Source: Spartobacteria bacterium (GTDB lineage: Bacteria > Verrucomicrobiota > Verrucomicrobiia > Chthoniobacterales > UBA6821). From it: DNA of 64,000 bases. Shown here piece after piece: positions 1 through 12,000 of this stretch. The stretch covers positions 6,909 to 70,908 of the forward strand of contig CANIVT010000007.1 in NCBI GenBank assembly GCA_947471565.1. Direction: 5' to 3'. Made by a program: the position numbers and the translations under genes. Each line of letters starts with the position of its first letter. The first letter of the stretch is position 1. Below the pieces are notes generated by a model. It saw only the letters and a program-made list of their open reading frames with translations, was not told where the DNA came from and ran no database searches.

Positions 1-11
1 CACGGCAGGGA

Positions 12-26
12 GGACACAGAGCGTCC
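12..26. promoter_or_regulatory. GGAC-N7-GTCC inverted repeat, candidate WYL operator (copy 1)
   Basis: GGAC-ACAGAGC-GTCC; a second copy lies at 65-79, just upstream of the WYL ATG. Confidence 0.45.
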
Positions 27-44
27 CACCCCTTTCGAACCTTC

Positions 45-79
45 TTGAGTACGCACCGGAAGCAGGACATAACGGGTCC
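45..79 (+). promoter_or_regulatory. sigma70-type leaderless promoter of the WYL gene, overlapped by a GGAC-N7-GTCC site (65-79)
   Basis: TTGAGT(45-50)-N17-CATAAC(68-73)-6 nt-ATG(80). Confidence 0.6.
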
Positions 80-1108
80 ATGCCTCGCGTTTCCTCCAAG
101 CGGTCCGTCCGCCCTTCCAAGTCCTCAAAAGGCGGCCACGGCCGCTCGGCACGACTCCCCATGTTCCGGATCATGCAGATCCACGAGCGCCTCAAGGAGG
201 GGGGATTCCCCAATTGTCAGGCCCTCTCCGACGATCTCGAGGTCTCCTACAAGACAGTCCAGCGCGACATCGACTTCATGCGCGACCAGCTCCAGCTGCC
301 GATCGAATACGACAGCGTCCGCCACGGGTTCCTCTACACACGCGAGGTGAAGAACCTCCCCGCCATGGCGCTTCAGGAGGGGGAAGTCATCGCCCTGCTG
401 GTCGCCCAGCGTGCCGCCGAGCAGTACCGCGGCACACCCTTTGAGAAATCGCTCCGCAACGCCTTCACCAGGCTCATCGAGAGTCTCCCCTCCAAGTCTG
501 AAATCTCCCTCAAGGACCTCAGCGAGGCCGTCTCCTTCCGCCCGCCAGGACCTCCCGCCGAGGATCTGGAGTGTTTCCAGACCCTCTCCAACGCCCTCCT
601 GAAGTCTCAGGAGATCGAGTTCCGCTACCGCAAGCCCGGTGACGGCACAGGAGCCATCCGCCGGGTTCAGCCCTACCACCTCGGCTGCATCGGCGGGATC
701 TGGTACCTCATCGGTCTCGATCTCGGACGCAATGCCCTGCGCACCTTCGCCCTCGCACGCATCGCAGCACCCGCCAACCTCAACCGCCGCTTCACCCGTC
801 CGAAGGACTTTTCACTCGACGACATGCTCAGCGACAGCTTCTCGGCCTTCGAGACAAGGAACGCCCAGCAGGTCCGCATCTTCCTGGACCCGCTCGCCGC
901 GTCACTGACCTCGGAGCGCAAATGGCACCCCTCCCAGAAGATCACCTTCCGGAAGGATGGCTCTGCTGAGTTGACCATGAAGGTCGGCCTCGCCCCCGAC
1001 CTGGAGGCTTGGATCATGGGATGGGGCCCCAGAGCCAAGGTGCTCGCGCCTGTCGCCCTACGCAACCGGATTGCAGCATCCCTTCAGAAGGCCGCGATGC
1101 AGTATTGA
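80..1108 (+). CDS. WYL-domain transcriptional regulator (wHTH-WYL-WCX, PafB/PafC-like)
   Basis: 342 aa; HTH LSDDLEVSYKTVQRDIDFMR; WYL core RRVQPYHL..WYLIG..RTFALARI; C-terminal WIMGWGPRAKVLAP. Confidence 0.93.
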   Translation: MPRVSSKRSVRPSKSSKGGHGRSARLPMFRIMQIHERLKEGGFPNCQALSDDLEVSYKTVQRDIDFMRDQLQLPIEYDSVRHGFLYTREVKNLPAMALQEGEVIALLVAQRAAEQYRGTPFEKSLRNAFTRLIESLPSKSEISLKDLSEAVSFRPPGPPAEDLECFQTLSNALLKSQEIEFRYRKPGDGTGAIRRVQPYHLGCIGGIWYLIGLDLGRNALRTFALARIAAPANLNRRFTRPKDFSLDDMLSDSFSAFETRNAQQVRIFLDPLAASLTSERKWHPSQKITFRKDGSAELTMKVGLAPDLEAWIMGWGPRAKVLAPVALRNRIAASLQKAAMQY

Positions 1109-1110
1109 GA
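953..1110 (+). repeat. 158-bp direct repeat, copy 1 (3' end of the WYL gene)
   Basis: matches 2199-2356 with 3 mismatches, all synonymous. Confidence 0.95.
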
Positions 1111-1117
1111 GGCGTCT

Positions 1118-1294
1118 TCAACGCCCAACAATTTTTGCAATCCTCGCTGAAATCTCGCTCCCCGGGATCCCCTCGACAGCATCCGATCGAATCTCGGCGA
1201 CACGCTCGGCAACCACGTCCTTCCAAGCGGATTCGATACCGAGCTCAATGAATTGCTGCAGGGAATGAGTCTGTCTGTCCATGAGTTCCTCCAT
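1118..1294 (-). pseudogene. remnant of an addiction-module antitoxin (TIGR02574-like), 58 aa, not in the ORF track
   Basis: hand translation ..IESAWKDVVAERVAEIRSDAVEGIPGSEISARIAKIVGR*; N-terminus degenerate; no toxin partner. Confidence 0.6.
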
Positions 1295-1327
1295 TTGCTG
1301 AACTTTAAGTCAAAGCTGGGAGCTTTC

Positions 1328-1954
1328 TCACCGTGAGGCGGCAATGATTTCCCTCCTCACATCGATGTCCCGTCCGAAAAGACGCTGCCACAGCAACCGG
1401 GTGTTCGTGATCGGATCACCGGGAGCCGACTCGTCATAAGCCGGCTTATAGAGATGCACTGCACGGATCAGCGAATCCACCAACTCGTCCTCGGTGGGAT
1501 GGCCAGTTCGTGAAATCACCTCCTCGAATGCCTCAAAGTCCTTCTCCTCACCACGGCTGATCTTGGAAACAAGGATATCGATCGGATGTGGGAAAAGTAC
1601 ATCCAGAGCCTCAAGACGCTCGACATGAGCGCGCATCCGCCAGTCGAGGGCTGTACGGAATGTCCCTAGCGGACAAACTTCCACATACGGCGAACTCAAG
1701 CCCTTGGTAAGACCAGCCTCCTTTAAAAATGCCTCGATGCTCTCATCGGACGCAATGTCCAAATCTCCGCTCATGATAGCGTTGGAAATACCCATCTGAA
1801 GTGGGGAAGAACCAAAGACGACAACCTGAAGATGTTTAAACCCAGGCTCCTTGGAGAGCACACCCGCAGCCTGCCTCAACAGTTGAGCACCCGGAGTGCT
1901 CCAGTCGAGTTCAGGAAACCACCTTGCCCTGTGCCACGGTTCGCTCACGCTCAT
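1328..1954 (-). CDS. DUF6036/AbiEii-like nucleotidyltransferase (putative TA toxin)
   Basis: FGSSPL..SGDLDI (GS..DxD) and HPIDILVSKISRGEEKD motifs; start MSVSEPW chosen. Confidence 0.7.
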   Translation of the reverse strand: MSVSEPWHRARWFPELDWSTPGAQLLRQAAGVLSKEPGFKHLQVVVFGSSPLQMGISNAIMSGDLDIASDESIEAFLKEAGLTKGLSSPYVEVCPLGTFRTALDWRMRAHVERLEALDVLFPHPIDILVSKISRGEEKDFEAFEEVISRTGHPTEDELVDSLIRAVHLYKPAYDESAPGDPITNTRLLWQRLFGRDIDVRREIIAASR

Positions 1955-2141
1955 AATCCAGCCCCTTGTAGGCACAAAGGCAGGCCAAAGCTTGATCCAG
2001 CAATCTCGGAGTCACCGAGGGATCCCTTTCCAGCTTTCCGACCAATGCCTCCCAGCGACTACCCAGACGCCTTCCTTTCGTCAGGACAACCGACTTCCTC
2101 CAGCTAGGGCTGGCTGAAATCTTGGACGGATTAATCTTCAT
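1911..2141 (-). CDS. small hypothetical protein, probable partner of the DUF6036 gene
   Basis: 76 aa; overlaps the downstream gene; TTGAAT exactly 35 nt upstream of the ATG. Confidence 0.55.
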   Translation of the reverse strand: MKINPSKISASPSWRKSVVLTKGRRLGSRWEALVGKLERDPSVTPRLLDQALACLCAYKGLDYERERTVAQGKVVS

Positions 2142-2198
2142 GCCTACCCAATCCTCCAAAACCATGCCACATTCAAGCTAATCCCGTCACATCAGGAC

Positions 2199-2356
2199 AA
2201 GGATGGCTCCGCTGAGTTGACCATGAAGGTCGGCCTCGCCCCCGACCTGGAGGCTTGGATCATGGGATGGGGCCCCAGAGCCAAGGTGCTCGCGCCTGTC
2301 GCCCTCCGCAACCGGATTGCAGCATCCCTTCAGAAGGCCGCGATGCAGTACTGAGA
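2199..2356 (+). repeat. 158-bp direct repeat, copy 2 (orphan WYL 3' end, KDGSAE...AAMQY*)
   Basis: 155/158 identical to 953-1110. Confidence 0.95.
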
Positions 2357-2368
2357 AAGTTCCTATCC

Positions 2369-2400
2369 CCCTCGACTCCCGTACAGCCGAATGTCTCGCG
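2369..2400 (+). repeat. 32-bp imperfect direct repeat, copy 1
   Basis: ccctcgactcccgtacagccgaatgtctcgcg; 29/32 identical to 3229-3260. Confidence 0.85.
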
Positions 2401-2465
2401 CGGAGGGGCAGAGATCGCTGAGGAATAAAAGACAGACCGGACCACATTGGCTTCGCCAACAAAGC

Positions 2466-2907
2466 TCAGGCAGGAGCTAAAGTAGCGCGGATTTTCAGAT
2501 CCGTTGCGACAATGAAGCCCTTGGTCCATGAGCGCGCCTCCTCCATGGCGAAGAGTGCAGATATCCTCTCCTCAAGGGCACGCCTTGAAGGGTCGCGCAT
2601 CCTGATCAGCAGGATCCCATGATGCGTTCCGGGAGCGAATTTACGGATATCGGAGAAATCCAGATCTTGGGTGATCAGGAAGCGTCCATCCATTTGGGCT
2701 CTTTCCCAGACGATCGCATCGGGTTTGCCATTGACCCCTTCATCCTCAACTGTGTCGGTTTCATGGCCAAGCCGCGACAGAATCCCCACCAGGGTGGCAG
2801 GCAAGTTTTGTATGCTGCTCTCCCCCGAGAGAAGCACCCTTCGGGTCTGGCTTCGCCAGCTACAACTCAGCCTACCTTGGCCTCGTTTCATCCAGCTTGA
2901 TCCTCAC
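2466..2907 (-). pseudogene. DUF5615 PIN-like toxin interrupted by a 79-bp insertion
   Basis: GTG at 2907 gives MRIKLDE, then the insert (2808-2886), then NLPATLVGILSRLGH..LITQDLDFSD; the original frame hits TAG inside the insert. Confidence 0.8.
2808..2886. mobile_element. 79-bp palindrome-rich insertion (REP/MITE-like), possible 3-bp TTT target duplication
   Basis: splits the conserved LDE/NL motif; hairpins CCC-TTC-GGG, CTGGC-TTC-GCCAG and TCTC-CCCC-GAGA. Confidence 0.6.
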
Positions 2908-3143
2908 GCCGCTACCGGGACGGGTGGCAAGGGAAGATCCTCCTCGGCTGAGGAAGCAGCATAGGCAATCACAGCCCGAATAGCCTCATAGGAAAGGGTC
3001 GGAAATGCCTTGAGGATCTCCTCGATGGAGTCTCCCTCTGCAAGCGATGCCAGAACGGTACGCAGAGTCACCCTGGTTCCCCGGATCACGGGTTGTCCCC
3101 CGCAGATCAACTTGTCGGAAACAATGTAATCCTTGAATGACAT
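2904..3143 (-). CDS. DUF433 family antitoxin
   Basis: ICGGQPVIRGTRVTLRTVLASLAEGDSIEEILKAFPTL; stop overlaps the toxin GTG. Confidence 0.92.
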   Translation of the reverse strand: MSFKDYIVSDKLICGGQPVIRGTRVTLRTVLASLAEGDSIEEILKAFPTLSYEAIRAVIAYAASSAEEDLPLPPVPVAA

Positions 3144-3228
3144 GGCTCACCAATACCCCCGGGACTACCGGCAGTCAACATGCACAAAACAAGGGAGATG
3201 CGCGCGAACTGCCCTCATTGACACTGGT

Positions 3229-3260
3229 CCCTCGACTCCCGTTCAGCCCAATGTCACGCG
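3229..3260 (+). repeat. 32-bp imperfect direct repeat, copy 2
   Basis: ccctcgactcccgttcagcccaatgtcacgcg. Confidence 0.85.
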
Positions 3261-3282
3261 TTGATCGAGGAGAGATTCAATC

Positions 3283-3336
3283 CATCTCCCATCTCCTAGC
3301 TCCCCCCTAACAGCCTTCAGTCTAAAAGCCTATTTT
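3283..3336 (+). repeat. heptamer-like intergenic repeat (CCTAACAGCCTTCAG family)
   Basis: reverse complement aaaataggcttttagactgaaggctgttagg matches 11930-12000 and 10441-10545. Confidence 0.75.
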
Positions 3337-3346
3337 GGTACCCATG

Positions 3347-3405
3347 GGACACTCAGCGACCTAGCCGGTCGGTATCATTGTGGGCAACGGGGACACCGAG
3401 TTTCC
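3347..3405. promoter_or_regulatory. two imperfect GGAC-N7-GTCC sites upstream of the vWA gene
   Basis: GGAC-ACTCAGC-GACC (3347-3361) and GGAC-ACCGAGT-TTCC (3391-3405). Confidence 0.35.
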
Positions 3406-3427
3406 GACACACCACCACCTCATCCCC

Positions 3428-4114
3428 ATGACCGAACACAATCCCGCCACAAACAAACTCACTGAAATCGCCTTCATCCTCGACCAGTCGGGTTCCATGG
3501 AATCCATCAAACAGGGTACCATTGAGGGTTTTAATGCGTTCCTCTCCCAGCAACAGGAGGAGAATGACAAGTATCCGGCCCTCTTTTCGCTTACCCTTTT
3601 CAATGCCGGCATCAACGAAGTCATCACTTCGGAACCGGTGGCGAAGGTCTCTACTCTGGACTCCCACAACTACAGACCTTCGGGTGGAACGGCCCTTCTC
3701 GATGCCATCGGACTCACCATCGACAGCCTCGGCAAGCGCCTGGCAGAGACACCTGAACCCGATCGCCCCGCGAAGGTCATTGTGGCCATCATGACCGATG
3801 GCGAGGAGAACTCCTCCAGACAGTTCACCTGGACTCAGGTCAGTGACAAGATCAAGCACCAGAGTGAGGTCTACAAGTGGGAGTTCCTCTTCATGGGAGC
3901 CAACCAGGATGCGATTGCGACGGCCTCGCGGATCAGCATTGATCGCGATAGTGGAGTGAACTACTTCCAACAGGACGGCAGCGCCAGGAAAGTACTCCGC
4001 GCCATGAGTGCCTCGGTCCAATACAGCAAGCGGGCACCCAGGCCACAATGGTCTAAACCATCGTTGCAGGAGATCATGGCCGAGGAAGAGGCCAAGGATC
4101 AGTCCAAGCAGTAA
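3428..4114 (+). CDS. vWA-domain (MIDAS) protein
   Basis: ILDQSGSM, GGTALLDAIG, IMTDGEENSS, FLFMGAN. Confidence 0.9.
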   Translation: MTEHNPATNKLTEIAFILDQSGSMESIKQGTIEGFNAFLSQQQEENDKYPALFSLTLFNAGINEVITSEPVAKVSTLDSHNYRPSGGTALLDAIGLTIDSLGKRLAETPEPDRPAKVIVAIMTDGEENSSRQFTWTQVSDKIKHQSEVYKWEFLFMGANQDAIATASRISIDRDSGVNYFQQDGSARKVLRAMSASVQYSKRAPRPQWSKPSLQEIMAEEEAKDQSKQ

Positions 4115-4129
4115 CCCCTGAAATCCATG

Positions 4130-4165
4130 CCGGGTGATTCCTTCGATGGGGTCACCCGGTTTTTT
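4130..4165 (+). terminator. intrinsic terminator
   Basis: CCGGGTGATTCC/GGGGTCACCCGG stem followed by a T run. Confidence 0.85.
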
Positions 4166-4288
4166 CTGCCCAACTTCAAAAAAAGCCCAAAAAAAACCCT
4201 TGAGGAGGCTCCGGATTGACCCTTGTCGGGAGAACGGCGTAGTAAGGCAGGACTTTTTCAACTCATTGGTATCGGATACCGTGATCTC

Positions 4289-4957
4289 ATGTGCGGCCGT
4301 TTTGTCCGGAAAGGTGAATCGAAGAAGGTTGCTGAGGCCTTAGGGGTCCAAGACGGCGAGGAGAACTGGACGGAAAGCTACAACGTGGCTCCCGGATCCA
4401 CTGTTCCGATCGTCAGGGATGACCCTACTGGCCGGCATATGGCCCCCGCCGTCTGGGGATTCACATCTTCGGGCAGGGGTCCTCTGTTCAATGCCAGAGC
4501 TGAGACCGTTGATAGCCTTCCCAGCTTCCGCGACCACCTACGAGTGAACCGATGCCTGGTCCCCGCCAGTGGCTTTTACGAGTGGAGACCCAGTGATCGT
4601 CAGCCCTTCTACTTCGAGAGGGTGGATGGGCTTCCTCTGGCCTTTGCCGGGATCTGGAAACGAGTCGGCGATCACCTCGAGGCCACGGTCATCACCACCA
4701 CTCCCAACCGCGACATGTCTGCCATCCACGACAGGATGCCGGTGATCCTCTCTTCGGACAGGTGGAGCAATTGGCTCAATCCGGATCCCCTGTCATCAGC
4801 TGAGTCACAGAGTCTCCTGTGCCCGTCACCGGATGGCACCCTGACTCGTTGGCCTGTGAGCAGAGCTGTGGGGAGCATCAGGAACGACACTCAGGGATTG
4901 ATTGAACGGGTGGAGCCACAACCGACGGCTCAGGAGTTGTTTCCCATGTCCTCCTAG
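4289..4957 (+). CDS. SOS response-associated peptidase (SRAP, YedK/HMCES family)
   Basis: N-terminal MCGRF, SYNVAPG, LFNARAET, CLVPASGFYEW, HDRMPVIL. Confidence 0.95.
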   Translation: MCGRFVRKGESKKVAEALGVQDGEENWTESYNVAPGSTVPIVRDDPTGRHMAPAVWGFTSSGRGPLFNARAETVDSLPSFRDHLRVNRCLVPASGFYEWRPSDRQPFYFERVDGLPLAFAGIWKRVGDHLEATVITTTPNRDMSAIHDRMPVILSSDRWSNWLNPDPLSSAESQSLLCPSPDGTLTRWPVSRAVGSIRNDTQGLIERVEPQPTAQELFPMSS

Positions 4958-5073
4958 TGGATCGGAGTTGTTTGGAAACTCTCTCCTCATTTGACTCCAT
5001 GAGCCACCTTCCAATCTCTTTCATAATTTACATTTCCTAGACATTTATAAATATTTGAATAGGTTTTGCAATC

Positions 5074-5664
5074 ATGCCCTTGGTCCTTTCCAAGCTACTC
5101 AAGAAATCGCCGATCCACCGAACGAGCGAACTGGAGTCCCTTGGGCTCTCGCGTCCCCGTCTCAAACTTCTGGTGAAGCAGGGACTCCTAGAGAAGGCGA
5201 GTCGGGGTCTCTACGTGCTCACGGATTCCGGTGCCAGCGAGCATCGGGCCCTTGCGGAGGTTTCCAAACGGATCCCCCACGGGATCATCTGCCTCCTCTC
5301 CGCCCTGCGCTTCCACGACCTTACCACCCAATCCCCCCACGAGGTCTGGGTGGCTCTGGAACGCTCTGCTTGGACTCCCAGGATGGATCATCTCGATCTG
5401 CGGATCGTCCGCTTTTCCGGAGCTTCACTCCACAAAGGCCATGACCGGCATCTCATCGAAGGAGTGCCGGTCCTTGTGACCAACCCCGCCAAGACCGTTG
5501 CCGACTGCTTCAAGTACCGCAACAAGATCGGGGTCGAGGTGGCACTGGAAGCCCTCCGGGAAGTCTGGAACAAACGCCTCTGCACCATGTCCGAGCTGAT
5601 GCACTATGCTCGGATCTGTCGGGTCTCCAACGTCATGAAGCCCTATCTGGAGAGCGTTGCATGA
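5074..5664 (+). CDS. abiEi: type IV TA AbiEi family antitoxin
   Basis: RGLY, GIICLLSALRFHDLTTQSPHEVW, PAKTVADCFKYRNKIG. Confidence 0.9.
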   Translation: MPLVLSKLLKKSPIHRTSELESLGLSRPRLKLLVKQGLLEKASRGLYVLTDSGASEHRALAEVSKRIPHGIICLLSALRFHDLTTQSPHEVWVALERSAWTPRMDHLDLRIVRFSGASLHKGHDRHLIEGVPVLVTNPAKTVADCFKYRNKIGVEVALEALREVWNKRLCTMSELMHYARICRVSNVMKPYLESVA

Positions 5665-6071
5665 GCGATCATTCCATCGCCAATCTTGCGGCCTCGGTAC
5701 GCCAACGACTCCTCAACCTCAGCCGCACCAAGAAAGAACCCTTTGACCGCATTCTCTCCCGCTATGCCGTTGAGCGGCTCCTCTACCGTCTCAGCCGTTC
5801 CAGCTATCGAGACCGGTTTTTTCTCAAGGGCGCGATGCTTTTCTCGCTTTGGTTTGAGGAGATGCACCGTCCTACCCGCGACGTTGACCTGCTCGGCCAC
5901 GGCGATGATGACGAACCCGCCCTTGAACGGATCTTTGGAGAACTTTGTGATCTGGATGTTGAGCCCGATGGATTGGTCTTTCACGATGACTCTGTCCAAG
6001 CGGAGCGCATCAGGGAAGCAGCCGCCTACACAGGCATCCGAGTCACCCTCCTTGCTCCATCCGGAATTTGA
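5661..6071 (+). pseudogene. abiEii: AbiEii nucleotidyltransferase toxin, C-terminally truncated
   Basis: ERLLYRLS, FFLKGAML, RPTRDVDLL; only 136 aa against about 300 expected; ends at a junction with an antisense HigA fragment. Confidence 0.85.
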
Positions 6072-6252
6072 TCGCCTCCACGGGATCAGGAATGTCCATG
6101 GGGAAGTTTTCCTCCTCATAGCGCTCCACGAGCAGCGCCCACAGCTCCAGCTCCTCCTCCTCTGGCGAACCGGGAGCGGCATCCACTAGCTTCTCGATAC
6201 GGGTGAGCGCACCGGCGAGTTCCTTCCTGTTCTTGATGATCTTGGGTTTCAT
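6043..6252 (-). pseudogene. HigA-like antitoxin, truncated before its HTH; no cognate toxin
   Basis: ELELWALLVERYEEENFPMDIPDPVEAIKFRMEQ then an immediate stop. Confidence 0.8.
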
Positions 6253-6260
6253 GGCTCTGA

Positions 6261-6755
6261 TCAGATTTCGCCAGCCTCCCTAAGAAATTCACGTTCAAGC
6301 AGAGGCGAGATGAAGAAGCCTGCTTTCGATCGCAAGGACATCACTTCCTCGCCTAAGTTGGCAATCACACCCTCTCTCCTTGCTTTTAAAAGAATGCCCA
6401 AAGTTCCCACAACGGGAACATTCAGATTTCTTGCGACTCTTCTTCCCTCGAGTTCATCTATGATTAGACGGCTTGGAGAACATTCGAGCGAGAGAGCAAT
6501 TGCCTCAGCCTCACCCACATCCAGAGTAAGCGATAAGGTGGCGGCCAAGCCTTTGTCTTTACACCGCACGATTCTAAGCCATCCATCCCGTGTTGCCTCA
6601 TCAATGGACTTTTTTGCGGCGGGGTCTTCGATCCGCTCAAGTTCCCCATGAACCCCCTCGGGGATCGACACATCCCCAAACTGTTGTTTTAGCAGATCCA
6701 GTCGCCCGATGATGGCGAGAGCCGATATCGGCGAGGTGTCACTGACCGCCGGCAT
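6261..6755 (-). CDS. DUF3368 PIN-like protein
   Basis: VSDTSPI..L, LDVGEAEAIAL, LIIDELEGRRVA, GTLGILLKA. Confidence 0.9.
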   Translation of the reverse strand: MPAVSDTSPISALAIIGRLDLLKQQFGDVSIPEGVHGELERIEDPAAKKSIDEATRDGWLRIVRCKDKGLAATLSLTLDVGEAEAIALSLECSPSRLIIDELEGRRVARNLNVPVVGTLGILLKARREGVIANLGEEVMSLRSKAGFFISPLLEREFLREAGEI

Positions 6756-6993
6756 AAGCGAGATCCTCATTCACCTCGGCAGAGCCGTAGTGACGGGGAA
6801 TCCCCCGCTCGGAGAGAGCCAAACCGAACCGATCCTGACTCATTCCGGCAAGTTCGGCGGCCTTGCCGAACGCAAGCAACTCCCTCTGATACAGCGTCGA
6901 GGCAAGCTCCAACATCACCCTGCCGCGAAGCTCGGGCTCCGGCAGCTTCAATGCCCTCTCAATCTCATCAGGCATCTCGATCATCACAGACAT
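6739..6993 (-). CDS. UPF0175 family protein (partner of DUF3368)
   Basis: LYQRELLAFGKAAELAGMSQDRF..LSERGIP; promoter TTGCGG-N17-TATGCT-6 nt-ATG. Confidence 0.88.
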   Translation of the reverse strand: MSVMIEMPDEIERALKLPEPELRGRVMLELASTLYQRELLAFGKAAELAGMSQDRFGLALSERGIPRHYGSAEVNEDLAYAGGQ

Positions 6994-7161
6994 AAGGTCA
7001 GCATACTGACGGCACCCTAATTCCGCAAGGGGGTTGATCTCAGGCGACCGTCACCTCAGTGGTTACTGCCCCTAGTGGTTACGCTGCATCCGAGTCGAGC
7101 TCGGACTACCTTCGGGAGGATGAAGCCTCGATCCGGAGTTGTTTTGAGAACCCGTCGGGGC

Positions 7162-8133
7162 CTACCGAAACAACTCCAGCTGGTTTCCTCCCCCCAGGGC
7201 GAGGGCATCGATTCCCAGGGCACGAAGGTCGCCGGCAAACTCCTCGGTGAAGCCGTGCACCGTGAAGACCTTCTTGGCACCTGTCTCCTCCACATGCTCG
7301 ATGAGTTCCCCGTGATCCGCATGATCTGACAGGGGGAAAGCCGCATCACACCGGTTGCGATAGATGGCGCTTGAGTCCATGGCCCAGCCACTGATCACGG
7401 CACTGCGGCTCTTCTCAACCTTCTGGCCAGAGAGCCGGGTGTTCGGCGGAATGATCAGCACCTTCCCTGTATGGTTCTTGCCGTCCCAGAGGGTGTACTT
7501 ACCGAGATCGACTCCGTGCTTCCCGTAGACAGCACTCATCACGCCCACGGAACGATGAACCGCCACCTCCATCGCTGATCCGGCGAGGATAGCGAGGAGT
7601 TCCTGGGATTTCCCCAGAGAATAGGCGAGCAGGATTGGTGTCACCCCCTCCGAGAGGGACTGCCTGCAAAAATTCAGGATCTCCTCCCTAACCCGCTCCA
7701 CGGGAGGAAAGGCGTAGCGAAGGTGGCCGAAGGTGCATTCCATCACGAGCGTCCCGGCCTTTGCCGAGGCTGCCTCCTCGCAGGTCAGGCTCTCCCGACG
7801 CTTGAAGTCCCCCGTGTAGAGCAGCCTCCCCTCCTCCGTTTCCACGAGCACCTGCGCCGAGCCGAGGATGTGACCCGCCGGAAGGAGGGTGATCCTCGCC
7901 CTATCCGTGCAGTAGGTTTCCCCGTAATCCAATTCGATCAGGGTGCATCCCGATGGAACAGGCTTCCTGGCCTTCATGAGATCAATCGTGGCAAAGCTCG
8001 CGATCGTGACCGTGTGCCACCCCGCATGATCACTGTGAGCATGGGAGACCACGGCAAGCGGCACCTTGCGCCTGGGATCCAGCCTCAGATCGCATCCGGG
8101 AAGGTGGATGCCGTTCCCCAGCCGTACGTCCAT
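7162..8133 (-). CDS. MBL-fold exonuclease (ligase-associated DNA damage response exonuclease-like)
   Basis: SHAHSDH, AGHILGSA, YTGDF, LVMECTFG, LSDHAD. Confidence 0.88.
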   Translation of the reverse strand: MDVRLGNGIHLPGCDLRLDPRRKVPLAVVSHAHSDHAGWHTVTIASFATIDLMKARKPVPSGCTLIELDYGETYCTDRARITLLPAGHILGSAQVLVETEEGRLLYTGDFKRRESLTCEEAASAKAGTLVMECTFGHLRYAFPPVERVREEILNFCRQSLSEGVTPILLAYSLGKSQELLAILAGSAMEVAVHRSVGVMSAVYGKHGVDLGKYTLWDGKNHTGKVLIIPPNTRLSGQKVEKSRSAVISGWAMDSSAIYRNRCDAAFPLSDHADHGELIEHVEETGAKKVFTVHGFTEEFAGDLRALGIDALALGGGNQLELFR

Positions 8134-8146
8134 GGCTAAAAAGCTA

Positions 8147-9064
8147 TTATCCACAGAAGACATTTCTTCTGTGCCATCCGAGATGTTCTTCGGACGGACG
8201 GAGCATCACCCCATCTAGAAAGTGTAATGGCGCACCGTTCCGAGACTTCAGCCAAGACGCCTCAGGACCCCACTCTGTGAAAACCGTAGGTGCGACACAG
8301 ACACGCTTACTCTCATCAACTGTCCATAGTCCTTCATCAAACATCCAATGCGCATCACGGGTTAGAGCAAGCCCGTTATCGGGATTGTCATTCCGGCTCT
8401 TTGAGAATGCGTGGACATGTGCAGCCTCCACAAGAGTCGCCCCTTTGGAGGTATGGCATCCATAACCAGTGAGAGCGCATGAAAATCTATATTGCGTGAC
8501 CACGACGATCCGGAACCGTGCATCTCTGCCTTTAGACTGATACTCTTGGGAATCTTCCCGCAATTTAAACGCAGCCTTCTGGGCCTCGGCCTTGCCAATG
8601 CCCATGGCTGCAAGTAATCCCTGCTGCTCATGATCAGGAAACCAGCTACGAATAAGTATAAACCTAGCAAGACGCCTAAACGAAGCATCTTGGAGGATCT
8701 CAAAGAAATCCCTGTTGAAACGAACTGATGTTGTAGTATCTGCGGAGTTACTCACTTTTCTATCCAGCCGGAGAGGATCCCAGAAGCCCTGACTTCCTAG
8801 ATGATGAAAAGGAAGATCTAAGCCAGGCCGTCCACCCCACCGCGATTGCACAAGGGACCAATACGAGTCAAACCTTAGACGAAGCTCAGGAGATTTTCCC
8901 AGATTTTGATTTGCTAACTCAGAACTATCTGCCAAATCCAGAATGCATAGCAAAAGGAGGGGTTTGTGAGGGGCAAATCGAGCATTCCCGTTGCCCCTGG
9001 AATTACTAACGTTAGGGCGAAGCTTTTGTAGACGCCCTAACCATAGCTGCTGATTTGCATTCAT
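8147..9064 (-). CDS. HNH endonuclease with an SBD-like N-terminus (putative type IV restriction enzyme)
   Basis: PHKPLLLL..LPFHHL N-domain; EAAHV..DNGLALTRDAHWMFDEG HNH; looks AT-richer than the flanks. Confidence 0.82.
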   Translation of the reverse strand: MNANQQLWLGRLQKLRPNVSNSRGNGNARFAPHKPLLLLCILDLADSSELANQNLGKSPELRLRFDSYWSLVQSRWGGRPGLDLPFHHLGSQGFWDPLRLDRKVSNSADTTTSVRFNRDFFEILQDASFRRLARFILIRSWFPDHEQQGLLAAMGIGKAEAQKAAFKLREDSQEYQSKGRDARFRIVVVTQYRFSCALTGYGCHTSKGATLVEAAHVHAFSKSRNDNPDNGLALTRDAHWMFDEGLWTVDESKRVCVAPTVFTEWGPEASWLKSRNGAPLHFLDGVMLRPSEEHLGWHRRNVFCG

Positions 9065-9129
9065 TAGTACATTCTTTGCAGTAATTTGGTTGTCCAAGAA
9101 CACTTATCTTGCATGTGTGTTTTTATTAC

Positions 9130-9216
9130 GAGACTCGGGAGATCGGATGGAGAGCAAGGCGTGAGAGCGAAGCTGTAGTGAACTACTGCGAGCGAACGAC
9201 AACACAGCTATCCGCC
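9130..9216 (+). repeat. ~87-bp structured dispersed repeat, copy 1
   Basis: 37/50 identity to 12105-12154; shared GGATGGAGAGC and GTAG-loop-CTAC stem. Confidence 0.8.
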
Positions 9217-9737
9217 GATATCCCGAGTCTAACTGATTTGGCCCATTGGAGGGAGCTTTTCACCACCTTCCCCTCTCTATTCACGGTCCCCCTGATCTCC
9301 TGAAGAAGCCCTCTGTATTCTCCAAGAATCCTCAGCGCATCCTCGCCCATCGCCCTTCCCTCAAAGAGCTCCCGGGGTCTTGACTGGAAATCCAATCCGG
9401 CCTGCACGTCCCGAGACATCAGGGGGACTCCCAGGTCAGCATTAGAGAGGAGTAATCTGCGATCCAGATCTACCTCCACAGAGCACCCCTCTATCAGGGA
9501 TAACTCCCCTCCCCCTAGGTCGAGATGGAGGATGGAAATCATCTTCCGCTCCAGATCCCAAAGATCACCGAGCTTCTCCTCAGAGACGCCGAGATTCCGT
9601 AGATCACGAATCTTCCTCAGGAAGGCCTCGTAGCACTCGGGGTACTGCTCAAGAACAGGGAGACCGAACCTTTTACGCATCCTGCTGATCCAGAGGACGG
9701 GGCGGCCGAGCTTTTCTGACAGTTCAGATAGGGTCAT
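9183..9737 (-). CDS. hypothetical protein (N-terminus possibly HTH-like)
   Basis: 184-aa ORF; its 5' end recurs as a diverged copy at 10390-10445. Confidence 0.7.
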   Translation of the reverse strand: MTLSELSEKLGRPVLWISRMRKRFGLPVLEQYPECYEAFLRKIRDLRNLGVSEEKLGDLWDLERKMISILHLDLGGGELSLIEGCSVEVDLDRRLLLSNADLGVPLMSRDVQAGLDFQSRPRELFEGRAMGEDALRILGEYRGLLQEIRGTVNREGKVVKSSLQWAKSVRLGISADSCVVVRSQ

Positions 9738-9747
9738 TGAGGGAGGC
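9692..9747 (-). repeat. 56-bp direct repeat, copy A (5' end of the 9183-9737 gene)
   Basis: 46/56 identical to 10390-10445. Confidence 0.88.
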
Positions 9748-9776
9748 GCTGGCAGCGCGGTTAAAAAGTGAAACGT

Positions 9777-9876
9777 TGGAAGGTTACAAGGTAAGAACCA
9801 GATCCGTGAGTTTGGAATCCTACAACCTCACCTGGGTCACCAAGTGTCCTAGGGAAGCGCTGGAAGGTTACAAGGT
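9777..9876 (+). repeat. two exact 16-mers TGGAAGGTTACAAGGT
   Basis: at 9777-9792 and 9861-9876. Confidence 0.8.
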
Positions 9877-9934
9877 GGGGCTGAAATACCCTGTTCACCT
9901 TGATTTCAGTGTCATCTAATCGTAATGTCGCACA

Positions 9935-10132
9935 ATGAGTATTCAGGAAATCGAAACCGCTGTGGCGAATCTCTCGCCTGAGGAGCTTTCCGTCTTCTCC
10001 GGATGGTTTGAGGAGTTCGTCGCGGACCAGTGGGACCGTCAGATCGAGCGTGATGCGGCGGCCGGGCGCCTGAATGAAGTACTGGAACAGGCCAAACAAC
10101 ATCGGGAAGCGGGTCGCTGTATCCAGCTTTGA
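9935..10132 (+). CDS. putative antitoxin
   Basis: MSIQEIETAVANLSPEEL..WDRQIERDAAAGRL; promoter TTGATT-N17-TAATGT-6 nt-ATG. Confidence 0.8.
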   Translation: MSIQEIETAVANLSPEELSVFSGWFEEFVADQWDRQIERDAAAGRLNEVLEQAKQHREAGRCIQL

Positions 10133-10389
10133 ACCACTACGCCGACCCGGATTTCTGGGAAGCCTATAACAGGCTTCCCGACGTTGTTCGCGAACTTGCT
10201 GATAAGAACTTTGCCCTACTGAAGTCCGATCCCTCGCATCCCTCCCTTCGACTGAAGAGGATCGGGCCGCTCCATTCGGTGCGGGTGGGACTTCACTACC
10301 GTGCACTGGCCTCGGATCACCCAGATGGTCTGCAATGGTTCTGGATCGGTCACCACGCCGACTACGACCGCCTAATCTCCGGGAAATAG
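10129..10389 (+). CDS. RelE/ParE/HigB-like toxin
   Basis: FWEAYNRLP..LLKSDPSHPSL..SVRVGLHYRALA..WFWIGHHADYDRL; TTG start overlaps the upstream stop. Confidence 0.82.
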   Translation: MNHYADPDFWEAYNRLPDVVRELADKNFALLKSDPSHPSLRLKRIGPLHSVRVGLHYRALASDHPDGLQWFWIGHHADYDRLISGK

Positions 10390-10445
10390 AGAGTACGGGG
10401 CGGCCTAGTCGTTCTGAGAGATCTGAAAGGATCATTGAGGGAGGC
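10390..10445 (-). repeat. 56-bp direct repeat, copy B (orphan gene start MILSDLSERLGRPVL)
   Basis: diverged copy of MTLSELSEKLGRPVL. Confidence 0.88.
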
Positions 10446-10545
10446 TGTTGGGGAAGGCTGTTGGGGAAGGCTGTTAGGCTGAAGGCTCTTTGGCTGAAGG
10501 CTGAAGGCTGAAGGCTGTTAGGAGAAACTGAAGGGGAGATGGCAA
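10441..10545 (+). repeat. tandem AGGCTGA/AGGCTGTT heptamer-type repeats
   Basis: gaggctgttggggaaggctgtt...ggctgaaggctgaaggctgaaggctgttagg. Confidence 0.9.
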
Positions 10546-10608
10546 CTAGGAGTTGAGGTCGAGCGTGCCGAAGTTGACGGGGGCTGGATGTAGTAGTAGG
10601 GGTGAAAG

Positions 10609-10824
10609 ATGACTGTCGCTGAGCTCCGCCTGCTGCCATCGGCTGAAAAGCTGAAGATCATTGAAGCCCTCTGGGGTGATCTGGCTGCGGATAGCGACTC
10701 CTTTGAAAGCCCCTCCTGGCATGGTGAGGAACTCCTCAAGACGGAGGTCGCACTGACGTCAGGCACAGTTGAGGTCTTGGATTGGCAGGCTGCCAAGAAG
10801 GAGCTTCGGGCCAGATTTGAATGA
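10609..10824 (+). CDS. addiction-module antitoxin (TIGR02574-like)
   Basis: LPSAEKLKIIEALWGDL..SPSWHGEEL..DWQAAKKELR. Confidence 0.88.
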   Translation: MTVAELRLLPSAEKLKIIEALWGDLAADSDSFESPSWHGEELLKTEVALTSGTVEVLDWQAAKKELRARFE

Positions 10825-11120
10825 GGATCAAGATTCTGAGGTCAGCCCTTGAGGATCTGGCCACAGCAAGGGAGTTCTACGACAGCCAATCCGATGGGAT
10901 TGGAGACTATTTTTTCGATTCTCTTTTCTCCGAGATTGATTCCCTGACTTTGTACGCAGGGATCCATCCGCTCAGATTCGGATACCACCGGATGGTGGTG
11001 CAGAGATTCCCCTACTGCATCTACTATCGCATCTCGGATGAGGTGGCGACGGTGTTCCGGGTGCTCGATGCCCGCAGGAATCCCTCCTGGATCAGAAGAA
11101 GTCTGAGTGAACAACGCTGA
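10821..11120 (+). CDS. RelE/ParE family toxin
   Basis: ALEDLATAREFY..FPYCIYYRI..VFRVLDARRNP. Confidence 0.9.
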   Translation: MRIKILRSALEDLATAREFYDSQSDGIGDYFFDSLFSEIDSLTLYAGIHPLRFGYHRMVVQRFPYCIYYRISDEVATVFRVLDARRNPSWIRRSLSEQR

Positions 11121-11140
11121 GCAGGTCGTCGACGCGCTCA

Positions 11141-11926
11141 TTACTCTCCCTTGGCGAGTCGCGCAGCGTTGTGCGCCGGAAGGCCGGCTTTCTTGAACCG
11201 GGCCCGGGCTTTGCCGATGTCGTAGCTCACACGGCGCATGAGCAGGAGCCGCTGCTCGTAATCGTAGAGTGCGTAGGAGGCGCGTGGGTCGCCATCGCGA
11301 GACTGTCCCACCGAGCCAACATTGACGGTGTAGCGTTTGGAGGGATCCAGGAGGATGGGCTTCTCTCCGGGGGTGAGGCATCGGACGCCGAAGGTCTCCG
11401 GGTTCTCCTCCCAGATGCCGGGAACATGAGTATGTCCGTTGAAGCTGATGAAAGTGCTCTGGGCGGCGAAGTGGGCCTCGGCCTCCGTGGTCTCATGGAT
11501 GTAGTGAAACTCCGGTGGCTCGTTCAGCGAAGCGTGGGACAGGGTGATGGGATCGAGATTCACGGTGATGGGGAGATCCCTGAGCCAGCCAAGCTCGGCT
11601 TTGCTGACCTGCTCCTTGGCGATCTGCAGCGGTTTGCGGACAGGCACATCCCAGTCCTCCTCGAGGATCTTGTCCGCCAGCAGCAGCATGGCCTCGTGGT
11701 TACCCAGAACGGTGACTGCACAGAGGTCCATTACTTTCCTCACGCATGCTCCGGGCTCCGGTCCGTATCCGACGATGTCGCCCAGACAGAGGATCCCCCT
11801 GACCGGAAAGTCACGGAGATCCGCCAGGACCGCCTCGAGGGCGTCGAGGTTGGCATGGATGTCACTGATGAGGGCGAAGAAGTTATGGGTTGGGGTGGTT
11901 GTTTTGGCTTTTTGGGGTATGGGCAT
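11141..11926 (-). CDS. calcineurin-like metallophosphoesterase
   Basis: ISDIHAN, LGDIVGYG, LGNHE, GHTH, NVGSVGQSRDGDPRA. Confidence 0.93.
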   Translation of the reverse strand: MPIPQKAKTTTPTHNFFALISDIHANLDALEAVLADLRDFPVRGILCLGDIVGYGPEPGACVRKVMDLCAVTVLGNHEAMLLLADKILEEDWDVPVRKPLQIAKEQVSKAELGWLRDLPITVNLDPITLSHASLNEPPEFHYIHETTEAEAHFAAQSTFISFNGHTHVPGIWEENPETFGVRCLTPGEKPILLDPSKRYTVNVGSVGQSRDGDPRASYALYDYEQRLLLMRRVSYDIGKARARFKKAGLPAHNAARLAKGE

Positions 11927-11929
11927 GGT

Positions 11930-12000
11930 GAAAATAGGCTCTTAGGCTGAAAGCTCTTAGACTGAAGACTGTTAGGAGGAGCTGAAGGGGAGCTGGGTAA
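11930..12000 (+). repeat. heptamer-like intergenic repeat
   Basis: aaaataggctcttaggctgaaagctcttagactgaagactgttagg. Confidence 0.8.

Follow-up and report, generated by a model that had tools for sequence, protein, structure and literature searches.

Insertion with long target duplication is known from restriction-modification gene complexes (Nobusato et al. 2000, Gene 259:99; Furuta, Abe & Kobayashi 2010, PMC2853133). These insertions are bounded by direct repeats of variable length, above 30 bp, and carry no mobility genes; the repeat is single in a related genome that lacks the insert, and in some cases it overlaps the 3' end of a gene (PMC2853133). Most were found in competent bacteria and their mechanism was left open, the authors suggesting the double-strand breakage that is common to restriction-modification systems (PMC2853133). 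Experimentally, duplications of 109–950 bp have been generated by single-crossover and homology-facilitated events that require no site-specific enzyme (PMC3240628). The ways in which chromosomes acquire toxin-antitoxin and small defence genes without the help of a transposase or an integrase are poorly understood. Homology-facilitated illegitimate recombination, in which one end is homologous and the other illegitimate, was reportedly described by de Vries and Wackernagel in 2002. A different precedent is provided by e14 and phage 21, which reside in icd, and by tRNA-gene islands: the element brings a substitute 3' end so that the target gene is not disrupted, the original end persists as a displaced remnant, and most differences between the two copies are silent. 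The locus described here lies in a 64,000-nucleotide (nt) stretch, hereafter the window, of the genome of a Spartobacteria bacterium (GenBank assembly GCA_947471565.1, contig CANIVT010000007.1, positions 6,909 to 70,908). It consists of a small toxin-antitoxin-like cassette enclosed between two copies of the 3' end of a WYL regulator gene, and I propose that it is probably a recombinase-free case of insertion with long target duplication, which arose and has spread through recombination between strains.

A repeat search of the window returned a direct repeat of 158 nt, at 953–1110 (copy A) and 2199–2356 (copy B), with 98% identity and a spacing of 1246 nt; the 2.28-Mb genome contains no further copy. 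Copy A belongs to a working gene. The plus-strand gene at 80–1108 is intact and encodes a 342-amino-acid WYL-domain transcription regulator with HTH, WYL and WCX domains (Pfam WYL 2e-17, WCX 1.4e-14, HTH_11), full-length orthologues of which are present in 15 of the 22 other genomes of the genus. Its last 52 codons are contained in copy A, which comprises codons 292–342, the stop codon and a further 2 nt. Copy B, by contrast, is a displaced WYL 3' end, joined to the downstream region and devoid of the upstream gene body. The copies differ at three positions (A/B: 962/2208, TCT/TCC; 1058/2304, CTA/CTC; 1105/2351, TAT/TAC), all of them synonymous in the WYL frame. The repeat search and the codon check thus bear out what the original prediction, made from the letters alone, had read there, namely a 158-bp duplication of the WYL 3' end with three synonymous differences; the same is true of its description of the cargo as minimal, toxin-antitoxin-like and free of a recombinase. 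The cargo (1111–2198) indeed measures 1088 nt and contains three open reading frames (ORFs), all on the minus strand, none of which encodes a recombinase: an orphan antitoxin-like ORF, a DUF6036 nucleotidyltransferase gene and a small partner gene. Directly after the WYL stop codon lies the native WYL 3' flank (1109–1142, plus strand), with a small hairpin, GGCGT-CTTCA-ACGCC, and a run of T. The same flank follows WYL in genome G004 and in L042, a JGI metagenome contig from a related species, and alignments showed that 34 nt after the WYL stop are common to the window, G004 (locus L023) and L042. The hairpin was not called by the consensus terminator scan, and the scan for promoter and terminator consensus sequences gave no useful information.

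Read-level evidence for this arrangement was taken from Logan contigs of several lake studies, and not from raw reads. In runs X1 and X2, one contig of 1166 nt (1075–2240) crosses both junctions, starting within copy A, traversing the cargo and ending within copy B. The depth of this cargo contig (152/969 in X1/X2) was similar to that of the two flanks (160/941 and 159/935), while the contig into which the repeat had collapsed displayed about twice the depth of the flanks (308/1619). Both junctions were likewise found on one contig in runs X9, X14, X15 and X16, and on two separate contigs, one each, in X11. This arrangement is genuine and has become fixed in a number of lake populations. In X9, a 272-nt contig with a depth of 23.6 leaves the WYL stop codon into TCCTCGACTACCCCATCGTCG..., the cargo branch having a depth of 21.6 and the shared WYL contig one of 39.1. 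Run X9 therefore apparently holds a co-occurring strain with the same WYL gene but without the cassette at that site. The alternative sequence of X9 (WYL stop, then TCCTCGACTACCCC...) was absent from all fetched loci.

The same insertion is present in L042, whose collinearity with the window begins 5.6 kb upstream and extends as far as copy B, inclusive. The WYL proteins of the two loci are 91% identical, their upstream flanks 77–79% identical at the nucleotide level, and their VWA genes, which lie downstream, 69%. The order in L042 is that of the window, i.e. WYL, terminator, orphan antitoxin, DUF6036, partner and WYL 3' copy. On the right, the cargo ends with the upstream region of the DUF6036-partner pair (2166–2198), in which homology to a cassette of genome G006 stops at 2193, and is followed by what appears to be an illegitimate junction at 2198|2199. 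This junction, ...CATCAGGAC|AAGGA..., is identical in the window, L042 and run X11. Since gene order and cargo-copy B junction are both shared with L042, the joint was made only once. In L042, copy B is directly followed by an operator-like palindrome and the VWA gene, exactly as is the WYL stop codon in the more distant, cassette-free loci L030 and L062, where VWA starts 73 nt after that stop. Because cassette-free relatives have the order WYL-operator-VWA, the insert would consist of copy A, the terminator and the cargo, and copy B would be the original end of the gene.

Comparison of the repeats of L042 with each other and with functional WYL genes indicates how they have evolved. Copies A and B of L042 are 87.7% identical, with 21 differences in 156 positions, of which 17 are synonymous and two non-synonymous (P = 3e-9 for two or fewer non-synonymous among 19 changes under neutrality); the differences are spread along the whole 156 nt and leave no identical core. 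Copy B of L042 differs from the working WYL allele of locus L041 at 16 positions without any amino-acid change. It is nearest to the working allele of G004 (11 differences), while copy A of L042 is nearest to that of L041. Copy B of the window and copy B of L042 show 20 differences, with a ratio of non-synonymous to synonymous proportions of differences (pN/pS) of about 0.07. Judged by these substitution patterns, copy B behaves as coding sequence despite the absence of the gene body. The simplest reading is that copy B has been repeatedly overwritten by recombination with functional WYL ends, i.e. with the strain's own copy A in the case of the window, where identity is 98%, and with the alleles of other strains in L042. 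The earlier suggestion that the two copies are allele-like and evolved as coding DNA is thereby strengthened, the decisive facts being the 17 synonymous against two non-synonymous differences in L042 and the proximity of its copy B to a working allele of another lineage.

The cargo has a different history from its surroundings. Compared with L042, the window shows a pS of 0.41 in the 5' part of WYL, 0.55 in copy A and 0.45 in copy B, in contrast to 0.14 in DUF6036 and 0.12 in the partner gene; correspondingly, nucleotide identity is 93–95% in the pair as against 82–89% in WYL, copy A and copy B. Similarity between the two loci stops at the end of copy B, past which identity is 40%, so that the shared block has one of its boundaries at copy B. 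The strains of runs X14 and X15 display the same discrepancy with respect to the window, WYL being 4–6% diverged and the cargo 1%. In G004, DUF6036 is 94% identical at the nucleotide level but WYL 85%; there, DUF6036 is truncated and the orphan antitoxin segment is replaced by another cassette, composed of DUF5615/DUF433 and a 65-amino-acid ORF. Since the cargo is younger than both WYL and the repeats, the cassette must have passed from lineage to lineage after their split, landing with the same junction.

A second, independent insertion is found in L043, a locus whose WYL protein is 82% identical to that of the window. Here, a perfect 56-nt duplication of the WYL end surrounds 1225 nt with a single gene, which encodes a Fic_N-Fic-wHTH protein (PADLOC SoFic model, 1e-121). 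Loci L044 and L046 are 98.5–99.4% identical to L043 on both sides, and contain neither the insert nor a second repeat copy; they are true empty sites for the L043 insertion. The insert starts within the last WYL codon, supplies C-TAG (TAC-TAG) and then a hairpin, with the result that the protein ends in ...MQY* rather than ...MQYK*. By this sequence, the insert begins as the end of a donor WYL gene, terminator included, would be expected to look. Over the last 18 nt of WYL (GAAGGCCGCGATGCAGTA), the window and L043 do not differ, the genes being about 81% identical overall, and this stretch could have been available for a short-homology crossover. Both duplications, of 158 and 56 nt, end at the WYL stop codon, while their inner ends differ, lying at codon 292 in the former and 56 nt before the stop in the latter. 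When about 180 fetched loci were each searched for a repetition of their WYL end, no event other than these two came to light, and 122 more distant loci displayed no WYL-end duplication besides that of the window itself. No clustering of single-nucleotide polymorphisms (SNPs) was seen near the L043 insert. A search for the SoFic donor led to nearest relatives of 75–76% amino-acid identity, on contigs outside the WYL search matches, and no WYL allele with the 5' flank of the SoFic cargo was found among the fetched loci. The upstream region of the SoFic cargo (L043 5393–6673) contains a perfect palindrome, TCTTATTAAAGA...TCTTTAATAAGA, and this cargo ends 13 nt past the stop codon of its gene.

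The locus thus combines one junction shared by two species and bounded by allele-like repeats, a cargo younger than its surroundings, and a second, recent event with exact empty sites. Because these three lines together point to recombination, inter-strain homologous recombination is proposed as the engine of the process. The recipient locus would have been one in which WYL is directly followed by the operator and VWA, and part of it would have been replaced by a piece of DNA from another strain, made up of a WYL 3' end, the terminator, the orphan antitoxin and the partner/DUF6036 pair. The left end would have been formed by homologous or short-homology recombination within the conserved WYL end, and the right end, just upstream of the promoter of the pair, by an illegitimate joint 156 nt before the WYL stop of the recipient. 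With these two joints, the donor end (copy A) would complete the WYL gene and the recipient end (copy B) would stay behind the cargo. Single-crossover (Campbell-type) integration of a circle bearing one copy of the repeat would be an equivalent route. Thereafter, the WYL-A-cargo-B block could enter any strain with an intact WYL gene by RecA recombination, with WYL and copy B as arms. Functional WYL ends, whether the strain's own copy A or the alleles of other strains, would keep overwriting copy B, which would for that reason diverge only synonymously. The repeats should also permit loss of the cargo by recombination with each other, a loss against which a functional toxin-antitoxin pair would select. 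The left end of the window leads in frame out of WYL with an alternative stop and a terminator, as it does in L043, which would be expected of a homologous anchor. At the illegitimate joint, a microhomology of 3–10 bp was taken as the criterion, and the nearest free-standing cassette, that of G006, diverges 5 nt before the joint.

Several points weigh against recombination between strains as the explanation. The donor arrangement was recovered for neither event, hence microhomology at the illegitimate joints could not be scored. When the repeat was cut into thirds, no clean crossover point was found. To account for the near-identity of copies A and B in the window, gene conversion or else a closely related donor must be postulated in addition. 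As for the empty site that the original prediction proposed to look for in related genomes, it is exact for the second insertion (L044 and L046), and cassette-free WYL-VWA loci exist (L030 and L062), but the exact empty site of the 158-nt event was not recovered, its only hint being the X9 branch with about half the WYL depth. Furthermore, the evidence comes from contigs, in which rare excised or empty forms are out of view. Lastly, the presence of ComEC and DprA in the genome allows natural transformation, but this is weak evidence, the control genomes including E. coli.

Among the alternatives, the one that survives best, although it is unlikely, is a non-autonomous site-specific element (of the type of a cis-mobilizable element, CIME), whose attP would carry a replacement WYL 3' end and whose integrase would act in trans, in the manner of phage 21 or e14 at icd. 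Direct repeats that rebuild the end of a target gene are the classic signature of integrative elements, and two different cargos have come to lie at the end of the same gene. A recombinase was looked for at several levels. Neither the cargo of the window nor that of L043 encodes one. A scan of the genome with PF00589 gave three matches, two Xer-like proteins of 309 and 319 amino acids on contigs C2 and C1, and one match at the cut-off on contig C10; a PF00239 scan for serine recombinases gave no match in the genome, and contig C7 carries neither a tyrosine nor a serine recombinase. When the genome's own recombinases were compared by tblastn, a search of low sensitivity, with about 200 fetched loci, the only match was a housekeeping Xer-like gene located 4–5 kb upstream of WYL in some relatives. 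Pfam analysis of 130 representative ORFs downstream of WYL in the genus yielded UvrD/PD-(D/E)XK helicase-nucleases, toxin-antitoxin parts, Fic, HNH and two IS66 transposases, among others, and no integrase was present among the 25 families listed for these 130 ORFs. A site-specific element is thus confronted with cargos and a contig devoid of integrase, with a genome that offers two Xer-like proteins, one weak tyrosine recombinase match and no serine recombinase, and with about 200 loci where, within the limited sensitivity of the search, no integrase was detected downstream of WYL. It would also have to accommodate repeats that differ in length and inner boundary (158 vs 56 nt), and divergence between copies A and B of L042 that leaves no identical core. 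Integration of the attL/attR type, which the original prediction had likened to the locus, is consequently not retained: an integrase is missing from cargo and contig alike, and the second insertion duplicates 56 nt instead of 158. Integron cassettes were considered and rejected, since no intI-like gene is present (three tyrosine recombinases, none on C7) and the known boundaries have no motif in common; no attC-type site was recognised at the cassette ends, although without formal attC modelling. A target duplication arising from a staggered cut was rejected: in both cases the duplicated stretch extends up to the stop codon, the point at which strains cease to be homologous.

A local tandem duplication of 953–2198 in a WYL-cargo ancestor, followed by deletion or replacement of the second cargo copy, would yield exactly this type of junction, the end of a segment joined to its start. 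It is nevertheless improbable: several extra steps are needed, the direct succession of copy B, operator and VWA in L042, as found after WYL in cassette-free relatives, fits simple insertion, and L043 has true empty-site alleles and a foreign cargo. It is more doubtful still that copy B is conserved because it is functional, for instance as a WCX C-terminal peptide of 43–45 amino acids (from TTG 2217 or ATG 2223 to 2354) that would modulate the WYL regulator and be kept by purifying selection. The pN/pS of about 0.07 between copies B across species and an open frame with possible starts are compatible with such a peptide, but no ribosome-binding or promoter signal was noted, and copy B of L042 is close to a working allele of another lineage, as recombination predicts. 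Moreover, the majority repeat contig of X14/X15 has a G>A change at 2270 that converts TGG into TGA (W315*); this is most simply a nonsense mutation in the copy B of these strains, the collapsed contigs being common to A and B, and it argues that copy B is not needed as a peptide. Finally, an assembly chimera of two strains, conceivable for a metagenome-assembled genome with SNP-differing repeats of the kind typical of strain mixtures, is practically excluded, because a single independent contig crosses the two junctions, the cargo being as deep as the flanks and the repeat about twice as deep, because at least five further runs and the independently assembled L042 have the same structure, and because the merging of two strains, which the original prediction had named as the artefact to check for, left no trace in contig continuity or depth.

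Recombination between strains being the favoured explanation, the nature of the genes that it would have carried is of interest. The orphan ORF (1118–1294, minus strand, 58 amino acids) resembles Unstab_antitox (Pfam PF09720, E 1e-6), has no toxin partner and is 79% identical to its counterpart in L042 at the amino-acid level. Its pS of 0.256 and pN of 0.094 relative to L042 (pN/pS about 0.37) make the constraint on it look relaxed. The DUF6036 nucleotidyltransferase (1328–1975, minus strand), the toxin-like member of the pair, scores 23.7 bits against a cut-off of 23.6 with Pfam PF19502, and its true start is probably the ATG at 1954; the protein had no significant match in NCBIfam, PADLOC or PDB sequence searches. 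Its partner (1911–2165, minus strand, an 84-amino-acid ORF) lies always directly upstream of DUF6036 and is 94% identical in L042 and 77% in G006. Since L042 has an in-frame stop upstream of the ATG at 2141, translation of the partner probably starts there, which would give 76 amino acids. The partner, presumed to be a putative antitoxin or regulator, had no match in Pfam, NCBIfam, PADLOC or PDB sequence searches. DUF6036 and partner are kept together in L042 and in G006 (92% and 79% amino-acid identity for DUF6036, respectively); in G001, the comparison covered DUF6036 alone, at 80% amino-acid identity. As far as gene organization can tell, the layout is that of AbiE-like nucleotidyltransferase toxin-antitoxin systems: two adjacent and co-oriented small genes that form a conserved pair, one of them of the nucleotidyltransferase type. 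Truncated, frameshifted or otherwise decayed copies of DUF6036 occur in several genomes of the genus (L023, i.e. G004:C69, 98–667; G015:C92; G006:C55; G009:C256), which indicates that the module decays as well as spreads.

The cassette is part of a larger island. Positions 1–12000 of the window contain at least five toxin-antitoxin-like modules (DUF6036, DUF5615/DUF433, AbiEi/AbiEii, DUF3368/UPF0175 and Unstab_antitox ORFs), interleaved with genes of the DNA-damage type (SRAP, MBL-fold nuclease, HNH). Immediately downstream of copy B lies a second cassette (2369–3260), with a DUF5615 gene at 2466–2891 and a DUF433 gene at 2904–3143, both on the minus strand, between 32-nt direct repeats at 2369–2400 and 3229–3260 (29 of 32 positions identical). 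Other strains leave the window sequence near these repeats: X14/X15 do so past 2418, X16 past 3180, and X9 at 3238–3306, where it has 1069 nt of other sequence instead; this suggests further cassette turnover at the 32-nt repeats. Within the DUF5615 gene, at 2797–2896, some 79 nt of the window are absent from the contigs of X9, X14, X15, X16 and X11: X9, X14 and X15 skip 98 nt and have 19 other letters in their place, while X16 and X11 skip 83 nt and have four. The extra sequence looks like a small insertion element that disrupts the N-terminus of a PIN-like toxin in this strain only. Next come the VWA and SRAP genes (3380–4957, plus strand, assigned by Pfam), of which VWA, the one that was checked, directly follows WYL in cassette-free relatives. 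A conserved palindrome of the type (T)AGGAC(A/G)C-N4-GTG(A/T)C(C) is located upstream of WYL (about 12–32), upstream of VWA (3343–3360) and after copy B in L042, and most cassette-free relatives have it 20–60 nt past their WYL stop. This motif probably acts as the operator or promoter of a WYL-controlled VWA-SRAP unit. Elsewhere in the island, a 56-nt repeat (9692–9747 and 10390–10445, 82% identity) duplicates the start of the gene at 9183–9737 and brackets another small gene pair, a variation on the theme of a cassette placed between copies of the end of a neighbouring gene.

If inter-strain recombination is indeed the engine, the same logic may account for the mosaic toxin-antitoxin and defence hotspots beside WYL regulators, in freshwater Verrucomicrobiota and beyond. 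A tentative extension, less likely than not, is that copy B serves as a built-in homology arm. The succession gene end-cargo-gene end would then constitute a mobile unit, recombinase-free and targeting itself, which finds the WYL gene in any related strain via the host RecA, could pop out when its repeats recombine with each other, and is kept by its toxin-antitoxin pair. Should this be the case, the natural filled, empty and transferred alleles would offer a first mechanistic handle on how insertion with long target duplication comes about, which has been an open question since 2000, and would account for the spread of toxin-antitoxin and single-gene defence systems among bacteria that have few mobile elements.

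How, then, does the locus compare with the systems already described? It shares with insertions with long target duplication a short selfish or defence unit that has no mobility gene and is flanked by repeats of more than 30 bp (158 nt, 98% identical, in the window; 56 nt, 100% identical, in L043). Furuta et al. (2010) looked for inserts shorter than 20 kb without integrase or transposase, and the 1088-nt cargo is of this kind. They also looked for a single repeat in a close empty genome, which is found exactly for the L043 event in L044 and L046, whereas for the 158-nt event the counterparts are only L030, L062 and the X9 branch. The cargo differs from that of the restriction-modification cases, being a toxin-antitoxin-like pair here and SoFic in L043; restriction-modification cargo was, however, a criterion of the screen and not of the mechanism. 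The host differs too, since it is a freshwater member of the Chthoniobacterales (Verrucomicrobiota) known from a metagenome-assembled genome. As with e14 and phage 21, a gene end has been replaced and a displaced remnant persists with mostly silent differences, but those elements encode their own integrase and have a fixed core, whereas the present insertions lack an integrase and differ in their repeat boundaries. The cassettes recall the toxin-antitoxin cassettes of chromosomal integrons in being small promoter-to-stop units gathered in an array within a variable region, and are unlike them in having no intI gene and in being bounded by copies of the ends of neighbouring genes. The homology-facilitated and Campbell-type cases are laboratory events obtained with engineered donors, while the process proposed here is deduced from natural alleles. 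The locus therefore adds to a known type of insertion, and the new part is the population evidence on repeat alleles and cargo age: the repeat copies demonstrably represent distinct alleles and the flanks are older than the cargo, and for these two reasons inter-strain recombination is favoured over a break made by an enzyme of the cargo itself.

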